Of a stretch of 64,000 nucleotides of DNA, positions 5,917 to 19,338 are shown one piece after another. The notes below the pieces were generated by a model. That model was not told the origin of the DNA, ran no database searches, and worked only from the letters and a program-made list of their open reading frames with translations. The stretch is from Candidatus Poribacteria bacterium (lineage in GTDB: Bacteria; Poribacteria; WGA-4E; WGA-3G). A program made the position numbers and the translations under genes. Where the stretch lies: positions 2,944,001 through 3,008,000 of the forward strand of contig CBDANF010000003.1 in assembly GCA_965197475.1 (NCBI GenBank), read 5' to 3'. Numbering within the stretch: the stretch's first letter is position 1; every line of letters begins with the position of its first letter.

Positions 5917-8900
5917 ATGAAAAAACATATTTTTCGTTTTGCCATATTTACGTTAATCTGTCTATTCTTTTGTATGCTATCTGTTGAGTTTGTTTATGCT
6001 GGGATTGAAGCTTCTATTATACTTGATATAGACCTTAACGAAAATGGTCTCATGCGTGATATTGCGGCGACAGCTACGCGTTTTTATGTCTTGTTTGCAG
6101 GCAGGCAACCGGAAATAGGAGGAACGTCCAATAGTGGATCGTCTTATATACGGAAAGTCTACGTTTTTGACCATGAAGGAACACGTAAACCAGACGAGGA
6201 GTTTGAAATAGATACAGAACTGACACCATACAGCATTGCAGTAACAAATAAATTTATCTATATTTCATACTGGGATAGTTCCGGTATTGATGCCTATGCG
6301 TTTGATGGTACGCGTTTACATGATGAGGGCTTACGTTATGCCTCTGCAGGTCAAAAAAGTAGTATAGCAGCAACAGAGACGCACATATATGTTTCAGATG
6401 TCTCTTATTTAGATGAAGTTGATATTTACAAGTTTAAAGATACACAAGGCGATCTAAACGCAAGGAACGTTTCCTGGGAGAAAGAATTTAAACTTACCAC
6501 AAATGAGAGTCTTAGAGCTTTCATCGCCGCAACAGATACCCGTGTCTATATCCAAAATCCTAACGATTCTACAATCTATGTCTACGATACCCGGGACGGT
6601 GGTAGACGCGCACGTGAAGATTTCGTACACTGCTTATGGACTGGGCTAAGGAAAGAATCTATTTACGTCCCCTCACGCTATTTATCAGGCATTACAACAA
6701 CACCATTAGGTGGAAAATTGTATATGTTAATTTCCCGATCAAGGGATGATGGAATAGAGGGACGCCAACTTAAGGTCTATAGGTATTCTATTCCGGAAGA
6801 AAATGCTGCACGTCCTGAGGTCTTTTTGCCTGCAAAACCGCCTCGCAGAGCAAGTTATTATTTCTATTTGCCGCCTTCTGGTTCCGGGATAGCTGCGACT
6901 GATACAACCGTCTATATAGGAGCTGATGGTTCACGTTATTTTGGTCGTGCTGCTACAATACATGCCGAAACCTATTCCGATGGGGTACCGGGCAGTTTAT
7001 TCGCAGATGCCGGCAAACTGAGAGGTAATATATCCGTAACCTATCCTCATCTAGGTTCTTCCGGTATGACAGTTGACTATAACAATATCTATCTGCTTAT
7101 TCGTCGGGCATCTGATGTACTTACTCAAGAACACAACTATGCCGTTCGACACTGTTTACTTAATTCAGATGGAACTATTCATGGTGGTAAGACGACATTA
7201 AGAGATCTTCAACTACCACTTGCAATGGAAAATTTTAAGAATGGAATAGGGCTAGCTATTGACTCAGAAGGAATTCTATACGTGATGGCTGCTGGTGAAA
7301 ATTACAAAGGACCTCCGCTAATCTATCGATATAAACCTTCATTGGATTCTCCACAACATAGTCAAGCTTTGCCTGGTAACCCTATCTTGTTACATCCTGA
7401 CCATAAGGCTCCATGCGGTATAACGATTGTAAAAAACCGCGCTTATGTTCTGGATAGGGCGTTTATAACTGATGAAGGCACCCCTCGATTGTACGCAAAG
7501 GTTTTTGTCTACGATTTGGATGCCCACGATGTATTTGAGTACTTACCTGAGGAGAGTTTTTTAGTAAATGCCCGAATAGGAAATCAGACAATCATACCGT
7601 ATGATTCAGGTATTGCTGTAAATGGAGACACATTTTTCATCTCAATGAGAGCAGAGTGGCCTTCCAATTATAAACATGTTCTTGTCTACGGTCCTCTTGC
7701 AGCACCGAGTTGGGGGCCCATACGCGCAGATACAATTCAGCGTAGGCAACCCTATGGTGGGGACATTAGAAGAATGTCAATAGTGGCTACAAATGGTAGT
7801 GACTACTACAAATACCAGGCAATCGAAGGTATTCCATGGATTCTTTCACTGGATTTTGACTTTGTATTTGGCAATCCTGATCCTTCCATTACCTTTAAAA
7901 CAGGTTATAAAAAACCAGAATGGTTGACCTTAAAGGATGGTGTTCTATCAGGTACCCCTTCATCAGCAGGTAAGTTAACAATTGAACTCACTGCCACCAA
8001 CGAACAAGGAAGTACGGATGAAAGTATCACCTTAAACGTTGGTCCGGGGGTTGTGGCACCGAGTTGGCATGATTTCTCAGTGCCAGAGATAAGGATACAC
8101 GATGCTTGGTCATTAACCTTAACTGACTTGGTTACTGGTAATCCGACACCGGAGATATATTTTACACAAGGATACACACCACCTGACTGGTTAAAGCTAA
8201 GAGAAGGCGTGTTATCAGGGACACCGCCAAAGGCGGGTACATATTCTATCCAAGTTACCGCTGCCAGTGCTCTCAGACGCCCTGGCTATGTAAAGTGGGC
8301 GGATATTGTGATATATTTGGTTGTCAAAGGTCCAACATCTCCTAATTGGGCACTTGATTCCATGAACGATACTGCACAAGGTATCGCCGCTACGGACAAC
8401 CGGATCTATGTGACAGACCTTATTGATGACAAAATCTATGTTTACGGACACGATGGAGAGCGATATGTTGCTCAGGATATAGACCTCAAGACACTCACAG
8501 AAAACCCAATCGGTATCACTGCTACGGTGACACATATCTATATTGTTGATAACAGCGAGGATATCGTCTCAATTTTAGATGTTACAGAAACAGGTTCTGT
8601 CGGCAATTTCAAGCTTGACCCCGATAATAGAGGTCCAACCGGTATTGCAGCGACAGCAAGACGACTTTATGTTGTTGACCACGAGGATGATAAGGTCTAT
8701 ACCTACGCACACGACGGTACACGGCACCCTACTGAGGATGTTAACCTGCACAAACATAGTGAACCCACCGGTATTACAGCGACAGCGACACGACTTTATG
8801 TTGTTGACGGTGATGATGACAAAATCTATCCCTATGAATATGATGGCAAAATGAAGAACAGTGAAATTGTTGAACTTGTTACAGAAAACAGAAGTCCAAC

Positions 8901-12882: not shown

Positions 12883-13212
12883 CTAACGAATTGCAGTTGG
12901 GACAATTTGAGCGATAAATTTCAAACTGTTTTCCAACTTTTCGATTGCCTCTGATTCGCGAGCTGTCCCACTCTTGAGTTCAATCGAAACTCCCACAAGA
13001 TTATTTTCAGTTGGAGAAATAAAAAAGAGAAGTCGGTCACACCTTTTTTCAGTTTTTTGGCGCAAATCAAACTCATGTTCAAGATTTACAATCACCCGTT
13101 CGGATGGTATGTCATCCATGTCAACATTGCATCCTTCTCCACTGCATGCATCAACTAAACTACCTGTATTAAAACGTGCACGGAGTTCACCAAGAATTCT
13201 ACTCTGATTCAC
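12883..13212 (-). CDS. Small PD-(D/E)XK-like partner of the AAA ATPase (possibly C-terminally truncated)
   Basis: RCDRLLF...VSIELKSG motif; overlaps the ATPase stop. Confidence 0.55.
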   Translation of the reverse strand: MNQSRILGELRARFNTGSLVDACSGEGCNVDMDDIPSERVIVNLEHEFDLRQKTEKRCDRLLFFISPTENNLVGVSIELKSGTARESEAIEKLENSLKFIAQIVPTAIR

Positions 13213-14609
13213 GCTTAGTGTTGCCTTTCATTTCTTCAAGTCGATTTTGTAGACGTGCGGAACGGTTGTAAAGGTCCTCAGCGACATCCAAATATTCCAT
13301 CGGTTCAACGCCGTCAATACGATTGTAAGGTATTTCTTCCACCTTTCCATTTTTCTGAAAATGCCAAATTCCAACTTGTTCTGTCTGAAGAGAAGTCGGC
13401 AGGTCGCTAACTTCCTGCCCTGCGTTCTCAAGTTCTCCTGCACGTATCAGATTCCCTATTTCCTGAAGTAACCAATCGCTATGTGTTGTTATTATTATTT
13501 TCACGCCTGCCCGAACTAAACGTGCAAGAATGACTGCCATGCCTGCTTGGGCACCCGGGTGTAGGTGTGCCTCCGGTTCTTCAATGATCAGCGTATCACC
13601 TGGCTGTACAAGACTTCGGAGATATAGGACTAAGGGCGCAAGTTCAGATACCATTGAGGAAGATTGGCTGAGACGAAATTCTTCATTAGTGCCTTGTGGT
13701 AAATAACGAAAGTCCGGATACCCACTCGCTGAAGGTTTTAAGCGTATCTTTCCAGCAAGTACTTCAGTTTCCAAAGTTTCAGAATGTTGTTTCATCTCAG
13801 CATTCGGTTTTTTTGGTTCTTCGTAAAGGATAATTTTTTCCATAAAGTCTGCTATCACTCCTGACATAGTGGGAACCTCAGGAAAACGTTCGAAACCTAC
13901 TCGGGTTGATCGCTTTACAAGCGAAGTTGCTATCACTCGATGACTTTGCATGATGCCGCTCCGGGCAGCAGGAAGGTAGTAACGGTTTCCTCCATTTTTG
14001 ATGTTTCCCTTAAAACCATGTATTTTTTTTACTCCGCTTGTCAGTTCAACTCCCCAATCTCCGCTAAAAGTGAAATTAAAATTACCTTCACCTTTCCAGT
14101 CTGTGGAGATTGCCAATCCCTCAGGAATAAGAATCATAGTCTCGTTGAATGAACTATTAAGGATAACATCTGATTCAGATGTATTTAACTTGATACTCCA
14201 ACCGTCTTGCTGTTTTTCATCAACCATCAGTGAAACAGTCATTTCATTTTTTTCTCCCGTTGTCAATCGTCTTAATTCCAAAATTGCATCAAAATCATAA
14301 CAGTTTTTGAGTTCAGACTGTAGTTTGTCCCCAAAAACCTCTGCATCATCAATAATTGTCTTTAAGAGATCTCGTAGTTCTGTTGGAAAATCTAACAATC
14401 TAAAGGCCCCTGTCACTGGTGTTTAGTTTTTTGAGCACATCCTGAACTTTTTGCTTTGCTGATGGACTCGCGTTTGTCAAAACAAAGTTCTGTAAAGCAT
14501 GTAAAATACCTACAATCCCTTGGAGCCCAGATGGAAATAGAAGTTGGGGTTCTGTCATATCCGGAAATACACCGTACAAGGCGTACACCAGCGTAGAAAA
14601 ATAAGTTTT

Positions 14610-15748
14610 CGGAATAAGTCGTTTTGGACTTGACAAAAGTTGGAAAAGTGCGCTAAACCCTTGTAAATAAAGGGTTTTCATAGTATAATATCAGTAAGAA
14701 AATAGGGGGTATCAACCCCCTATTTGAAACTCAAAAAAGCGAGTTGCTTTTCTGGTTCACACTTATCTGATATTGTATCAGAAACTATCAGAAAAATGCA
14801 ACTCCAAAAAACAGGAGTGTTTTCTGATGGATTTAATCAAGGTGATGAAGACGTTCTCAACGCAAGAGGATTGCATCGAATATCTGGAGCGGCTCCGATG
14901 GAAAGAATCGCCAGAATGCCCGCATTGTCCAAGTCTAAACGTCCGAAGGCGGAACGAACACGAGGTTGGGCGTGTCGGACGCTGGAACTGCCACGATTGC
15001 CGTGCTACATTCAAGGTGACACACGGCACAATATTTCACGGCACGAAGATACCGCTCCAAAAGCGGTTTCTCGCTATCGCTCTCATGGCAAACGCAAAGA
15101 AAAGTTTGTCCTCCCATCAACTTGCGCGCGATTTAGGGATGAAACAGAAAGCTGCTTGGTGTCTAATGATGGCTATACGCACAGAGATGGGAAAGGATAA
15201 TGTCCTACTACAAGGGGTCATTGAAGCAGATGAAACCTATATCGGTGGTAAGCGTCGCAAAGACTATGACCGGGAGGATGGTGAACCCCGTAAACGCGGA
15301 CGCGGCACCGCTAAAGATGCCGTGCTGGGCGCAGTCGCACGTGGTGGACACGTCATCGCACAACTCGTATCCAACGCCACTGGTGAGACGATCTCCGACT
15401 TCATCAACAGATTCGTCAATACCGAAGATTCTGAACTCATTACCGATCAGTATAGAAGCTACAACGAAATCGGTAAGGAAATGAAACATGAGACACTTAA
15501 CCGTAGTGAGAAATGGGAGGCTGGCGACATCCATACCAATACGATGGAAGGCTTTTGGTCTTTCGTCAAGAGGGCATGGTATGGACAACAACACCACTAC
15601 TCAACAAGATACACGCCCCTGTATCTCGCAGAGGCAGGCTATAAATATAACTACCGAGAAACCAACATCTTTGAGAAGTTTCTCACCGAAAGTATAACGT
15701 GAGAAATCTGAAAAATAAAAACTTCCAAGTCCAAAACGACTTATTGCG
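14610..15748 (+). mobile_element. IS1595-family insertion sequence (copy B)
   Basis: 23-bp TIRs CGGAATAAGTCGTTTTGGACTTG / rc CGCAATAAGTCGTTTTGGACTTG. 8-bp TSD TAAGTTTT at 14602-14609 and 15749-15756. Confidence 0.95.
14827..15702 (+). CDS. IS1595-family transposase
   Basis: CPHC...CHDC Zn ribbon, IEADETYIGG, ITDQY and HTNTMEGFWS motifs; AGGAG RBS. Confidence 0.93.
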   Translation: MDLIKVMKTFSTQEDCIEYLERLRWKESPECPHCPSLNVRRRNEHEVGRVGRWNCHDCRATFKVTHGTIFHGTKIPLQKRFLAIALMANAKKSLSSHQLARDLGMKQKAAWCLMMAIRTEMGKDNVLLQGVIEADETYIGGKRRKDYDREDGEPRKRGRGTAKDAVLGAVARGGHVIAQLVSNATGETISDFINRFVNTEDSELITDQYRSYNEIGKEMKHETLNRSEKWEAGDIHTNTMEGFWSFVKRAWYGQQHHYSTRYTPLYLAEAGYKYNYRETNIFEKFLTESIT

Positions 15749-15919
15749 TAAGTTTTTCCTGTATTACTGGGACCAACAAATACCGTCAACGGGCGCAAAT
15801 CGATATTGGCTTCCGCAATAGGTCCAAAATTCTCAACTGCAATTTCAACCTTCGGCTGCTCTTGTGTGTCTTTGACTTCGCTCATGGTCATCTCCTCAAA
15901 AATGATTTGTTTATGTAGG

Positions 15920-17290
15920 TTAGAAAAACGTTAAATACGGCTTACCGATAATCTCCCGCCACAACAGGACCGCAAGTTCGCGGGCGTGATAATCTCCCCA
16001 CATAGATGCCTCACCGCACGGAATCTTCCTACCTTCCGGCACATAATCCCATCCATTCGGACGGTGATACACGGAATGCAACAACAAGCCTTGATGTGAA
16101 TCAGAAGTAGAGAGATACGGTTCAGCGAAGAGAGTCTTTGCTACCGTCAAACCTGCTTGGTAATAGGAGTTGCCTGCCTCAGCTTCACCATGCTTTTTGA
16201 GATAGTTGCCGAGTCGAATTAATCCTTGGGCAGCAATCGCAGCTGCGGAGCTATCCACCGGTTCAAAATCGTTGAACGGATCGGCGGGTGCTGCCAAATA
16301 ATCTCCGAGCTCAGCTAAACCGGGAGCACCTGTATCCCAATATGGAATGCCATCTTGTGCGGTGTTCTCAATGTAGAAATCGGCAGTGGCTTCCGCTGCT
16401 TTGCGCATGTGTGTGGTTACTTCTACATACCCACCGTAAGGTTCAAGGTCATCTTCAGTTAGCGTGTCAAAAAATTCAAGTTGTTCAGCGTAGCCTGCTA
16501 TAATCCATGCCAATCCACGTGTCCACGTCGAAAACGGGGAATAACCTTGTTGTGTGCTGGGACAACGGTAATTACCATCATTTGTATTGAAGATAGATTC
16601 ATGCACAACACGTCCTTGCACGTCAAAAGCATCACGTCCTTCACCGTAGTAGACGTTATAGGCTGCTGTCGTCTGGGAATGTTGGAGCAGGCGTTCCAAT
16701 AGACTGATAGCGACATCGCCTTCACCCATCAGTACTGCACCGAGTGTATGTCCGATTGCTAAAACGCGTAGTGAACGAATAGTGTCAGAAAAGAGCGAAT
16801 GCGGACCGTTGAAAGAGGTGATATAGCCCGTTCCGTCTTTAATTCGTGTCCAGCGACTTGCTTGAACGGCAGCGGAGGCTTTCAGTGCAAGTTCATAGAA
16901 ATGCATCTCGCTATCGTTCCACGGAATGACACCTTCACGCATTAGTTGTCTTAGGTTTCCGTAAGTGGAGACGTTGTTGAAACCGTGGTCATGCACACCG
17001 ATGTGTGTGACATGGGGTGCCATCTTTTCAATCGTGTTCTGCCTACCAATTTCAAGAAACTGCTCATCACCTGTGGCATCAAATTGAAGGATAGCAGAGC
17101 CAAATTGGAATCCTTGTGTCCACTCAGTCCAACCTCGCGTGGTATAAGTACCAGCGACAGTAAAAACAGGGGTGCCTTTTTCAGGAGACCACGTATCTTC
17201 TATAGCCAATATTTTTTGACCTGAGCATTCAAAAAGTCGTTCTATCTGACGTTTCAGGTCATTAAGTTGCAATGAATCGTTTATCTGCAT
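15920..17290 (-). CDS. Glycoside hydrolase family 88 (unsaturated glucuronyl hydrolase-like)
   Basis: WTQGF, HDHGF, TWTRGLAW, PYWD, DSSAAAIAA and WGDY motifs. Confidence 0.8.
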   Translation of the reverse strand: MQINDSLQLNDLKRQIERLFECSGQKILAIEDTWSPEKGTPVFTVAGTYTTRGWTEWTQGFQFGSAILQFDATGDEQFLEIGRQNTIEKMAPHVTHIGVHDHGFNNVSTYGNLRQLMREGVIPWNDSEMHFYELALKASAAVQASRWTRIKDGTGYITSFNGPHSLFSDTIRSLRVLAIGHTLGAVLMGEGDVAISLLERLLQHSQTTAAYNVYYGEGRDAFDVQGRVVHESIFNTNDGNYRCPSTQQGYSPFSTWTRGLAWIIAGYAEQLEFFDTLTEDDLEPYGGYVEVTTHMRKAAEATADFYIENTAQDGIPYWDTGAPGLAELGDYLAAPADPFNDFEPVDSSAAAIAAQGLIRLGNYLKKHGEAEAGNSYYQAGLTVAKTLFAEPYLSTSDSHQGLLLHSVYHRPNGWDYVPEGRKIPCGEASMWGDYHARELAVLLWREIIGKPYLTFF

Positions 17291-17912: not shown

Positions 17913-18075
17913 CGGGTGTGTAAAGTTTTTGTCAATTTCTGAATCGCGGATTATGCGGATTTTGGGAACTTGGTGTCAAATCAATGGCAAATGCGCGCTT
18001 GATATTGGAAATCGGGGTTGAAAACCCCTCTTACAAGAGAAAGGGAATGGTTAATGCCAAAAACTTTACACACCC
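17913..18075. mobile_element. MITE (163 bp) with 18-bp TIRs and an 8-bp TSD
   Basis: GGGTGTGTAAAGTTTTTG (17914-17931) / CAAAAACTTTACACACCC (18058-18075); direct repeat ATTTCGTA at 17905-17912 and 18076-18083. Confidence 0.85.
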
Positions 18076-18177
18076 ATTTCGTAATACATTATTGCACAAT
18101 CTCCAAACTTTTGCTATAATAAAAGACACATTCCAATAGGCAATCATTCCCATTAAGAGACCCTGAAGGAGAGATAG

Positions 18178-19338
18178 ATGGACGCAAAGAGAGGTTCCGC
18201 AGATCGTTCCCTACCTATCTGTACACTTGGCGCAGACGAACATGGTAAAACAACGTTGACAGCAGCGATTGCAAAGGTCGTTGCACGAATCGGATCAATC
18301 CGTTCCAAAGCGAACAACCAATTTGAACAGCAAGCACCAGTTCACCACCCAATCCGCGAAGGTGTTGGCATTACCTATCGGGCAATTGATTACGAAACCA
18401 GCGGAAAATTCTATTTGCAGATTGACTGTGAAGCACATCTGGATATTATCAAAATGTTAGTCAGTCGTTCATTTGCAATCCAGGGTGCCATTTGGATTGT
18501 GGATGCTGATGAAGGGGTTACACAGGATTCCGAGGCACATCTCCGCATAGCGAACCGTATAAATTTGCCAACGGTAATTTCATTTCTCAATACACGAAAT
18601 ATCGCAAAAGATGATGAACTGGTAGATATTTGCCAACAAGAGATGCGCGATTTACTCACCGAATATGGATGGGAAGAACAGAACAGTCCTATAATTGTCG
18701 GAGATGCCAATAGGGCGTTAAACTACAAAGGCGATCGGATCGGTTCTGATCAGTGGAAACCGATTGTTGACCTGATATTTGCGATGAATCGGTGTATGCC
18801 TAAACCTGTCAATTCTGAAAACTTACCGCCCATTATGCCAATCTATGAGATTGTAGAGGAGCTGAAGGAACGCGTCACTGTGCGGGGTGAGATTGTTCAA
18901 GGACATCTTGCTGTCGGGCAGGCGGTCGATATTGTCGGTAAGGGCGATCGGATAAAGACAAAATGTCTTAGCATTAAAAAGAATGAAGTGAGTGTAGAGT
19001 CTGAACCCGATTGGTTGTCTATTGGGCAAGTTTTGTGTACACCTAAGACCATAAAGGCGCATTCAGATTTTACCGCTCTTATCTATCTGCTTACACAGGA
19101 AGAGAGCGGCACACATATCCCACTTATCGAAAATGATAAACCTGAAATCCATTTGTGGGGTATTGATATGCCAGCGAGTCTGCAGCTTCCACCAGAATTA
19201 TCCATTGTTACCCCTGGAGATAATGCTCATGTATCGTTTTCTCTCGAATTGCCGCTTGCAATGGAAGTTGGCACAACGTTTGAGGTAAAGAAAATGGGAT
19301 CACGGATCGGACTCGGTGTTGTGACTGATGTGGTGTAA
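18178..19338 (+). CDS. Divergent EF-Tu paralogue with degenerate GTPase motifs
   Basis: Colinear with EF-Tu (HGKTTLTAAI, YET, PIIVG, GQVLC, FTALIYLLTQEESG.H.P, PGDN, G.GVV). G3 reads DCEAH, G4 reads NTRN and G5 reads GDAN. Confidence 0.85.
   Translation: MDAKRGSADRSLPICTLGADEHGKTTLTAAIAKVVARIGSIRSKANNQFEQQAPVHHPIREGVGITYRAIDYETSGKFYLQIDCEAHLDIIKMLVSRSFAIQGAIWIVDADEGVTQDSEAHLRIANRINLPTVISFLNTRNIAKDDELVDICQQEMRDLLTEYGWEEQNSPIIVGDANRALNYKGDRIGSDQWKPIVDLIFAMNRCMPKPVNSENLPPIMPIYEIVEELKERVTVRGEIVQGHLAVGQAVDIVGKGDRIKTKCLSIKKNEVSVESEPDWLSIGQVLCTPKTIKAHSDFTALIYLLTQEESGTHIPLIENDKPEIHLWGIDMPASLQLPPELSIVTPGDNAHVSFSLELPLAMEVGTTFEVKKMGSRIGLGVVTDVV

Follow-up and report, generated by a model that had tools for sequence, protein, structure and literature searches.

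EF-Tu (elongation factor Tu) is among the best-studied and most conserved proteins, yet throughout one order of the sponge-associated Poribacteria there is an additional, rapidly evolving copy of it that appears to be switch-dead. What can such a copy do? The question is raised by a gene of a Candidatus Poribacteria bacterium, which lies on the plus strand at 18178..19338 of a stretch of 64,000 nucleotides (nt) of genomic DNA (contig CBDANF010000003.1, positions 2,944,001 to 3,008,000); this whole stretch is called the window below. We consider it fairly probable that the encoded protein is an order-specific, EF-Tu-derived pseudo-GTPase, which has given up both the GTP switch and the carriage of aminoacyl-tRNA and acts as a binding module in an open, GDP-like shape, independently of the nucleotide state. 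The gene and the parts of its product that carry the argument are as follows.

18178..19338, plus strand: coding sequence of the putative EF-Tu-derived pseudo-GTPase, 386 amino acids plus stop codon, ATG start, uninterrupted open reading frame (ORF)
18166..18171, plus strand: Shine-Dalgarno sequence AAGGAG, 6 nt before the ATG, read from the sequence
18178..18792, plus strand: G-like domain, residues 1-205, of which Pfam GTP_EFTU covers residues 13-198; the least constrained part
18229..18252, plus strand: P-loop GADEHGKT, residues 18-25, from the alignment to the genome's own tuf; the GxxxxGKT pattern is kept
18424..18438, plus strand: degenerate G3 motif and start of switch II, DCEAH, residues 83-87; Asp and His kept, Gly lost
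18589..18600, plus strand: degenerate G4 motif NTRN, residues 138-141, in place of NKxD, from the alignment to the genome's own tuf
18610..18657, plus strand: helix D, residues 145-160, with the motif D-x-E-L-x-[DE]-[IM]-C-x-x-E, from the family alignment
18793..19047, plus strand: shortened domain II, residues 206-290, with a net deletion of 14 residues; the most constrained part
19048..19335, plus strand: domain III, residues 291-386, of which Pfam GTP_EFTU_D3 covers residues 291-385

The overall architecture of the protein is that of EF-Tu. A preliminary description, which was based on the DNA letters, had reported a complete ORF with a ribosome binding site that encodes a full-length EF-Tu paralogue with all three domains, and this was confirmed. 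The G domain and domain III were recognized by Pfam (GTP_EFTU, 1.6e-19; GTP_EFTU_D3, 3.8e-14), the closest solved relatives were EF-Tu chains (for example 6gfu, with an E-value of 1.7e-63 over residues 13-385), and an AlphaFold2 (AF2) model comprised the three domains. The Pfam scan did not return GTP_EFTU_D2 for the window protein, despite a small beta-barrel in the model. The shortening of domain II was also described correctly and amounts to the net deletion listed above. At the site of this deletion, one genome family of the order (loci L049 and L058, and related loci, around positions 6800-6870) has an insert whose sequence is variable and of low complexity; it is about 8-19 residues long and contains much Ala, Ser, Glu and Gly.

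The protein is about 30-33% identical to canonical EF-Tu, and with 225.5 bits it stays below the cut-off of 522.4 bits of the NCBIfam EF-Tu equivalog TIGR00485. A chance ORF is ruled out by E-values below 1e-60 and by orthologues in every searched genome of the order. As had been proposed, the protein is not SelB: TIGR00475 matched only residues 14-174 with 42.6 bits (cut-off 242.25), the winged-helix architecture of about 600 residues is absent, and the 386-residue protein contains no C-terminal extension beyond domain III. CysN was likewise rejected (TIGR02034, 15.2 bits versus a cut-off of 336.1). A canonical tuf gene, which the preliminary description had expected elsewhere, was found in the same genome (5.7 Mb, 92.7% complete) with 721.9 bits, directly downstream of an EF-G-like frame; the window gene is therefore an additional copy.

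The motifs for nucleotide-dependent switching are largely lost. Alignment of the window protein with the canonical tuf product of its own genome revealed the replacement of GHVDHGKT by GADEHGKT, of RGITI by GVGITY, of DCPGH by DCEAH, of NKAD by NTRN, and of GSAL by GDAN, and all of the motif changes that had been listed from the sequence were thereby verified. Of the motifs G1 to G5 only G1 survives intact; the protein retains GxxxxGKT and the G3 Asp, and the base-recognition motif is absent. A census of 173 distinct family sequences showed that this is the rule. The GxxxxGKT P-loop is kept in 170 sequences and absent in 3, and the histidine following DxxG is kept in 137 (summed from the rows of the census table). 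The Gly of DxxG is kept in two sequences, and so is NKxD, with NKAE in another 17. In total, 28 variants of the G4 site occur among the 173 sequences, and its final two positions are hypervariable.

The changes extend to the residues with which EF-Tu contacts tRNA. Among the positions that are invariant in EF-Tu but not conserved in the paralogue are T61, H66, H118, D138, F218, R288, T338 and T382 (E. coli numbering). The same applies to the counterpart of E215, and the block of residues from about 260 to 273, which holds N273, is replaced. Furthermore, Q329 is replaced by Glu in the window protein, and the counterpart of E378 is Lys. Roles of T61, H118, R288, T338, E378 and T382 in EF-Tu are taken as background here, H118 being the site of EF-Ts intrusion. 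The amino acid pocket of EF-Tu is lined by H66, E215 and N273 according to the accessible parts of the published description, and the paralogue lacks all three elements of this pocket for the acceptor end of aminoacyl-tRNA. Canonical tRNA carriage, which the preliminary description had left open by suggesting a tRNA-binding factor, is not supported in view of these losses.

In spite of these losses, the paralogue is under purifying selection and is clearly maintained. The ORFs are uninterrupted at 48 of 48 loci (47 fetched loci plus the window) and encode 385-405 amino acids, and a Shine-Dalgarno-like word precedes the ATG at all of them. The ratios of non-synonymous to synonymous substitution rates (dN/dS) were estimated according to Nei-Gojobori, each pair being a comparison with the window gene; 20 of the 47 pairs were saturated. 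For the whole gene, dN/dS was 0.077-0.131 in 22 pairs with a dS of at most 1.64, and in the 12 pairs with a dS below 1 the median dN/dS was 0.111 and the median dN 0.088. The same 12 pairs gave a dN/dS of 0.155 for the G domain (dN 0.116), 0.040 for domain II (dN 0.046), and 0.096 for domain III (dN 0.062). For comparison, the canonical tuf of the same genus had a median dN/dS of 0.039 and a median dN of 0.0215 (9 pairs). Constraint is thus strongest on domains II and III and is shifted away from the nucleotide-binding G domain.

The approximately fourfold faster evolution of the paralogue at non-synonymous sites (dN 0.088 versus 0.0215), together with the stepwise erosion of the catalytic motifs, might be taken to indicate a neutral relic of a tuf duplication that is heading for decay. 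However, dN/dS values of about 0.1 contradict decay, as do the 48 uninterrupted ORFs with their Shine-Dalgarno words, the presence of the gene in 41 of 41 genomes of the order down to a divergence of about 30% identity, and contigs from RNA libraries that cover the gene. The probability of this explanation is negligible, and decay, which had been named as the outcome that would speak against a functional paralogue, was not found. Because the parts for the GTP switch and for charged tRNA have been lost while the gene is selectively maintained, we infer that the paralogue does a job other than that of EF-Tu, which is still undescribed. The retention of a GTPase fold, the loss of catalytic and switch motifs, and purifying selection are the hallmarks of the class of pseudoGTPases, and all of them are found here.

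The family is confined to the order in the collections that were searched. With the window protein as query, a family member was detected in 41 of 41 genomes of the order, and each genome contains one copy. Plain matches with 39-100% identity were obtained for 39 of them; for the weakest two (G033 and G039, about 152 bits), membership in the family was confirmed by an alignment and a tree. When 151 genomes were drawn from across the phylum, those of the order mostly had two EF-Tu-like matches, and 11 genomes outside of the order had one or none. A profile built from 27 members did not detect the paralogue in these 11 Poribacteria genomes, eight of which yielded tuf alone and three nothing. An exhaustive phmmer search of 1.84 billion representatives retrieved only two clusters above the plateau of EF-Tu matches (at most 186 bits, about 31% identity), namely P0001 with 448 bits and P0002 with 259 bits, and a search of the ESM Atlas returned EF-Tu-type clusters only. 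The source annotations of family proteins read 'GTP-binding protein', 'hypothetical protein' or 'elongation factor Tu'.

In an unrooted tree, the 27 family members included stood on one side of a branch with a support of 100/100, and the 24 EF-Tu sequences grouped together with the same support. The two groups are joined by a very long branch, and artefacts of such branches are likely; therefore, we did not take this split in the free tree as a sign of an ancient origin. A constrained tree with a clade of the paralogues plus Poribacteria tuf was not rejected (log-likelihood 11.9 above that of the free quick tree; p-value of the approximately unbiased test, p-AU, 0.739). Because of this result and of the narrow distribution, it is most likely that tuf was duplicated at the base of the order and that the copy then diverged fast. 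The branching of the family tree mirrors the genome families, in line with vertical inheritance within the order.

How far the dismantling of the GTPase can go is illustrated by three members (L169, L170 and L171) that have a deletion of three residues in the P-loop and contain no GKT; their G3 and G4 motifs are unrecognizable. Nevertheless, their ORFs are uninterrupted and the signature residues of the family are retained. In the careful tree they nest, at the end of a branch with a length of 1.24 changes per site, within a clade of P-loop-bearing members that has a support of 100/99, and the loss of the P-loop is therefore derived. The model of one P-loop-less member comprised the same three domains, with a predicted local distance difference test score (pLDDT) of 87.7 and a predicted template modelling score (pTM) of 0.87. 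The function outlasts the loss of the P-loop, and hence it cannot depend on nucleotide hydrolysis. At the other end of the series stands P0002, a singleton of 401 amino acids on a 2122-nt metagenome contig of the Joint Genome Institute (JGI), which has NKID, GSA and a full-length domain II, and in which DCVNH and a changed switch I are already present. It is about equidistant to EF-Tu (42-44% identity) and to the paralogues (about 40%). A metagenome scan found no relatives of P0002, and it occurs in none of the genomes searched. The family members would thus trace a stepwise route from a GTPase to a nucleotide-free scaffold: G4 and G5 are kept in basal members, base recognition is gone in most, and the P-loop is deleted in one subclade. 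This natural series lends itself to asking what the EF-Tu fold does without GTP.

These data also bear on the proposal, contained in the preliminary description, that the protein is a factor with a different nucleotide specificity, i.e. an active translational NTPase that uses ATP or xanthosine triphosphate (XTP) and serves a particular tRNA or condition. Compatible with it would be the Lys and Thr of the P-loop in 170 of 173 sequences, the kept Asp of DxxG, and a His at the catalytic position in 137 of 173. In addition, the NTRN of the window protein has an Asn at the position that is altered in the D138N mutant of EF-Tu, and this mutant prefers XTP. However, a new base specificity should be conserved, and the 28 variants at the hypervariable base-recognition positions argue against it. 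Moreover, hardly any member retains the switch I Thr or the Gly of DxxG, the aminoacyl pocket has disappeared, three members are conserved despite having no P-loop, and the G domain is the least constrained domain. We therefore regard an altered NTPase as very improbable.

If hydrolysis and tRNA delivery are lost, which surfaces remain under constraint? Lys89 of EF-Tu (K92 of the window protein) is common to EF-Tu and the paralogue and is invariant in all 51 aligned sequences. On helix D, the invariant residues D142, E144, L145 and E152 are found in both (D145, E147, L148 and E155 of the window protein), and the helix-D motif is nearly invariant across the family, P-loop-less members included. 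Eight further positions are conserved in each group with different residues, five of them in domain III, where the window protein has D320 for Y326 of E. coli EF-Tu, W327 for R333, E369 for A375, K372 for E378, and M373 for G379.

The distribution of these residues might suggest that the paralogue is a non-canonical binder of RNA or tRNA, in which domain III and the switch-II residue K92 hold a structured RNA such as uncharged tRNA without the help of GTP. The invariance of K92 and the strong constraint on domain III are in line with this idea. So is the accumulation of five of the eight differently conserved positions in domain III, including the invariant K372 in place of E378, which in EF-Tu presumably touches the T stem of tRNA. 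Yet the acceptor-end site is wholly remodelled, R288 and T338 no longer have counterparts, the window protein has Glu in place of Q329, and no RNA gene or tRNA-related neighbour is conserved. As a protein partner would explain the remodelled domain III equally well, we judge an RNA-binding role to be unlikely.

For the pseudo-GTPase proposed here, the following mechanism is envisaged. The three-domain fold of EF-Tu would have been kept, and GTP-driven switching and the carriage of aminoacyl-tRNA would have been lost, as the sensors of the gamma-phosphate (Thr of switch I, Gly of DxxG), the motifs that recognize guanine, and the pocket for the aminoacyl group have disappeared, in one subclade together with the P-loop. 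The protein would be locked in the open, GDP-like shape of EF-Tu, so that binding is independent of the nucleotide state, and it would function through contacts to proteins (or RNA) via the constrained domains II and III and the invariant helix D. The partner could be a component of the translation machinery, either EF-Ts or bL12 of the ribosomal stalk, and the paralogue would then modulate translation without taking part in it. EF-Ts and bL12 are our leading guess, by analogy, because helix D is their docking site on EF-Tu, as stated in the available portions of the structural literature. In the members with GxxxxGKT, the window protein included, the pocket may still accommodate a nucleotide or phosphate, which would serve as a structural cofactor irrespective of the base.

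The predicted structure gives a weak indication of the open shape. The AF2 model of the window protein had a pLDDT of 92 and a pTM of 0.88, with switch I folded as a beta hairpin. It was most similar to open, GDP-form EF-Tu chains (1tui, 1efc and 6mij; Z-scores of 44-46, root mean square deviations (rmsd) of 2.2-2.6 A over about 370 residues), with 1tui giving a Z-score of 44.6 and an rmsd of 2.2 A over 373 residues. The values were lower for EF-Tu in complexes with EF-Ts (Z-scores of about 35, rmsd 3.7-3.9 A) and lowest for the GTP-analogue form 2c78 (Z-score 30.4, rmsd 7.8 A). Foldseek returned the chains in the same order, with the open form ahead.

A more specific version would be an EF-Tu-shaped adaptor in the open 'GDP' form that requires no nucleotide, with helix D on EF-Ts or bL12 and domains II and III on a further partner, and that throttles or parks translation in slow-growing sponge symbionts. 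We regard this as a doubtful extension. If it were true, the adaptor would be a dedicated hibernation-like regulator that evolved from an elongation factor, a counterpart to the complex of EF-Tu(GDP) with Balon. For this complex, the accessible parts of the descriptions of hibernating ribosomes (8rdw, 8v9l) report an open EF-Tu held by bL12 and helix h5 of the 16S rRNA. The model fits the EF-Tu chains of both structures with Z-scores of 41-43, and the shortened domain II of the paralogue may remove the contact to the 30S subunit. The complex is by analogy a precedent for the role of the paralogue, not evidence for it. A search limited to one baeRF family, PF18854 (baeRF_family10), which is unconfirmed as that of Balon, gave no match in the 92.7% complete genome, a result of little weight.

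The genomic neighbourhood gives no lead to a partner. The gene is solitary, with a divergent cytidylyltransferase-like gene on one side and a convergent hisA gene on the other, and a fusA-tuf context is absent. HisA, ABC transporter genes and the cytidylyltransferase flank the paralogue only in the family of the window genome. In another family the neighbours are an M20 peptidase and an isochorismatase, and in the P-loop-less genomes genes for enolase-superfamily, HAD, sulfotransferase and GFO oxidoreductase proteins. One short-form EF-Ts is encoded per genome.

The context is also relevant for the suggestion, again from the preliminary description, that the protein is a decoy or sponge, which in a dense sponge microbiome would bind EF-Tu-targeting toxins or phage factors without being inactivated. 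We know of no cognate toxin. EF-Tu is a frequent target of toxins, the fold search returned complexes of EF-Tu with Tse6 and CdiA, and the known target residues D21 and T382 are not conserved in the paralogue. In addition, the toxin TreTu anchors on helix D, as far as the accessible part of its description goes, and helix D is conserved in the paralogue. Against this stand purifying selection in place of diversification (dN/dS 0.11 overall and 0.04 for domain II), the vertical inheritance of a single-copy gene, and neighbours with housekeeping or sugar-metabolism functions, none of which is a defence gene. A decoy function is thus quite unlikely.

The ORF is covered by contigs that were assembled from RNA libraries of three studies and are about 88-90% identical to it. 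A contig of 1256 nt, roughly the size of the gene, starts near a promoter-like site and ends 24 nt beyond the stop codon. This site, which sits 58 nt upstream of the ATG and close to the beginning of the longest contig over the gene, is:

18093..18120, plus strand: promoter-like site TGCACA-16 nt-TATAAT with TG before the -10 element, 10 of 12 matches in a consensus scan; a pattern match only

In run X1, the contig of the gene had a depth of 52 and those of the neighbours had depths of 14-15, values that cannot rank expression. The intergenic region upstream of the gene also contains a dispersed repeat of about 70 nt (18005-18080), which has 40 full or partial matches in its own genome. Many RNA-library contigs of high depth match this repeat and then run into unrelated sequence. 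It may be a repetitive extragenic palindromic (REP) element, a miniature inverted-repeat transposable element (MITE), or the like, or a small transcribed repeat.

Several points weigh against the pseudo-GTPase with a partner from the translation apparatus. The conservation of helix D is the sole observation that leads to EF-Ts and bL12. Moreover, the counterpart of H118 is not conserved, helix D has a family-specific Cys in place of Val, so that the partner may differ from those of EF-Tu, and EF-Ts shows no obvious extra divergence in the P-loop-less genomes (62-66% identity, versus 66% in genomes of the same family that have the P-loop). Most lineages strictly retain HGKT, which argues that binding of a nucleotide or phosphate still matters there, and independence of the nucleotide may be limited to the P-loop-less subclade. 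The predicted open conformation may reflect a training bias, and the AlphaFold alignment contained EF-Tu. Conserved neighbours that would be common to the families of the order were not found; the 10 loci that were compared share the paralogue alone. Lastly, RNA-library contigs may carry DNA, and the coverage of the gene is no proof of transcription.

The comparison with known systems places the family apart from them. With canonical EF-Tu it shares the fold, the P-loop pattern, the G3 Asp, K89 and the acidic residues of helix D. It differs by the absence of the switch I Thr, the DxxG Gly, NKxD, SAL and the residues of the aminoacyl pocket, by a domain II that is 14 residues shorter, by constraint on domains II and III instead of the G domain, and by a location outside of a fusA-tuf context. 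Precedents for an EF-Tu/EF1A fold that works outside the delivery of aminoacyl-tRNA are CysN and eukaryotic Ski7, a catalytically dead relative of the EF1 family. CysN is an active GTPase that works with CysD, and a specific sequence relationship to it was not observed. The present family is bacterial and order-specific, and it includes P-loop-less members. PseudoGTPases such as AAGAB and the domains of p190RhoGAP likewise keep the GTPase fold and have lost the motifs, and in the accessible parts of the literature theirs is described as serving protein-protein interaction. The examples given there are mostly eukaryotic domains of the small-GTPase type, whereas here a whole three-domain translational GTPase of bacteria would be concerned. 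Unlike these cases, one family spans members from pocket-retaining to P-loop-less.

A divergent second EF-Tu-like gene that is limited to one bacterial lineage is also known from actEF-Tu, for example EF-Tu3 of Streptomyces. In the main text of Atkinson 2015, as far as it is accessible, actEF-Tu is the only bacterial EF-Tu-like subfamily that clearly differs from EF-Tu, and copies of this type are described as condition-specific, antibiotic-resistant and working translation factors. In the protein from Poribacteria, the residues of the switch and of the pocket are gone, which sets it apart from actEF-Tu as described there. The paralogue thus stands outside the characterized subfamilies of translational GTPases as far as they are treated there, where the word 'Poribacteria' has 0 occurrences; the supplementary tables (Additional files 1 and 2) were outside this search and could list such sequences. 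A literature search retrieved no description of an EF-Tu paralogue of Poribacteria. New in this study are a subclade without a P-loop, the limitation of the family to a single order, the observation that constraint has moved towards domains II and III, the lead provided by helix D, the topology test, and the coverage by RNA libraries. The family provides an entry point to the control of translation in sponge symbionts that are uncultured, and if the partner is EF-Ts or the ribosomal stalk, the paralogue would represent a new kind of translation regulator.

Two further observations concern the surroundings of the gene. An IS1595-family transposase gene (14773-15702, plus strand; IS, insertion sequence) lies between two minus-strand ORFs in the region 13199-15891. 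One of them (15601-15891, minus strand) contains the Walker-A-like motif GPSNTGKTY, and the other (13199-14416, minus strand) matches the C-terminal part of AAA_15/AAA_21 (AbiEii-like) ATPases. An AAA_15 homologue is found at the corresponding place in related loci, and the arrangement looks like an ATPase gene that was split by the insertion. Genes connected with sulfated glycans were seen near the paralogue in different families, namely a gene with a weak GH88-like match (15920-17290, minus strand), one for a protein with an FGE-sulfatase domain (L050, 3952-5457, minus strand), and one for a sulfotransferase (L213, 7657-8370, minus strand). Genes for the metabolism of sulfated glycans are common in Poribacteria, and their occurrence near the paralogue probably reflects only this abundance.

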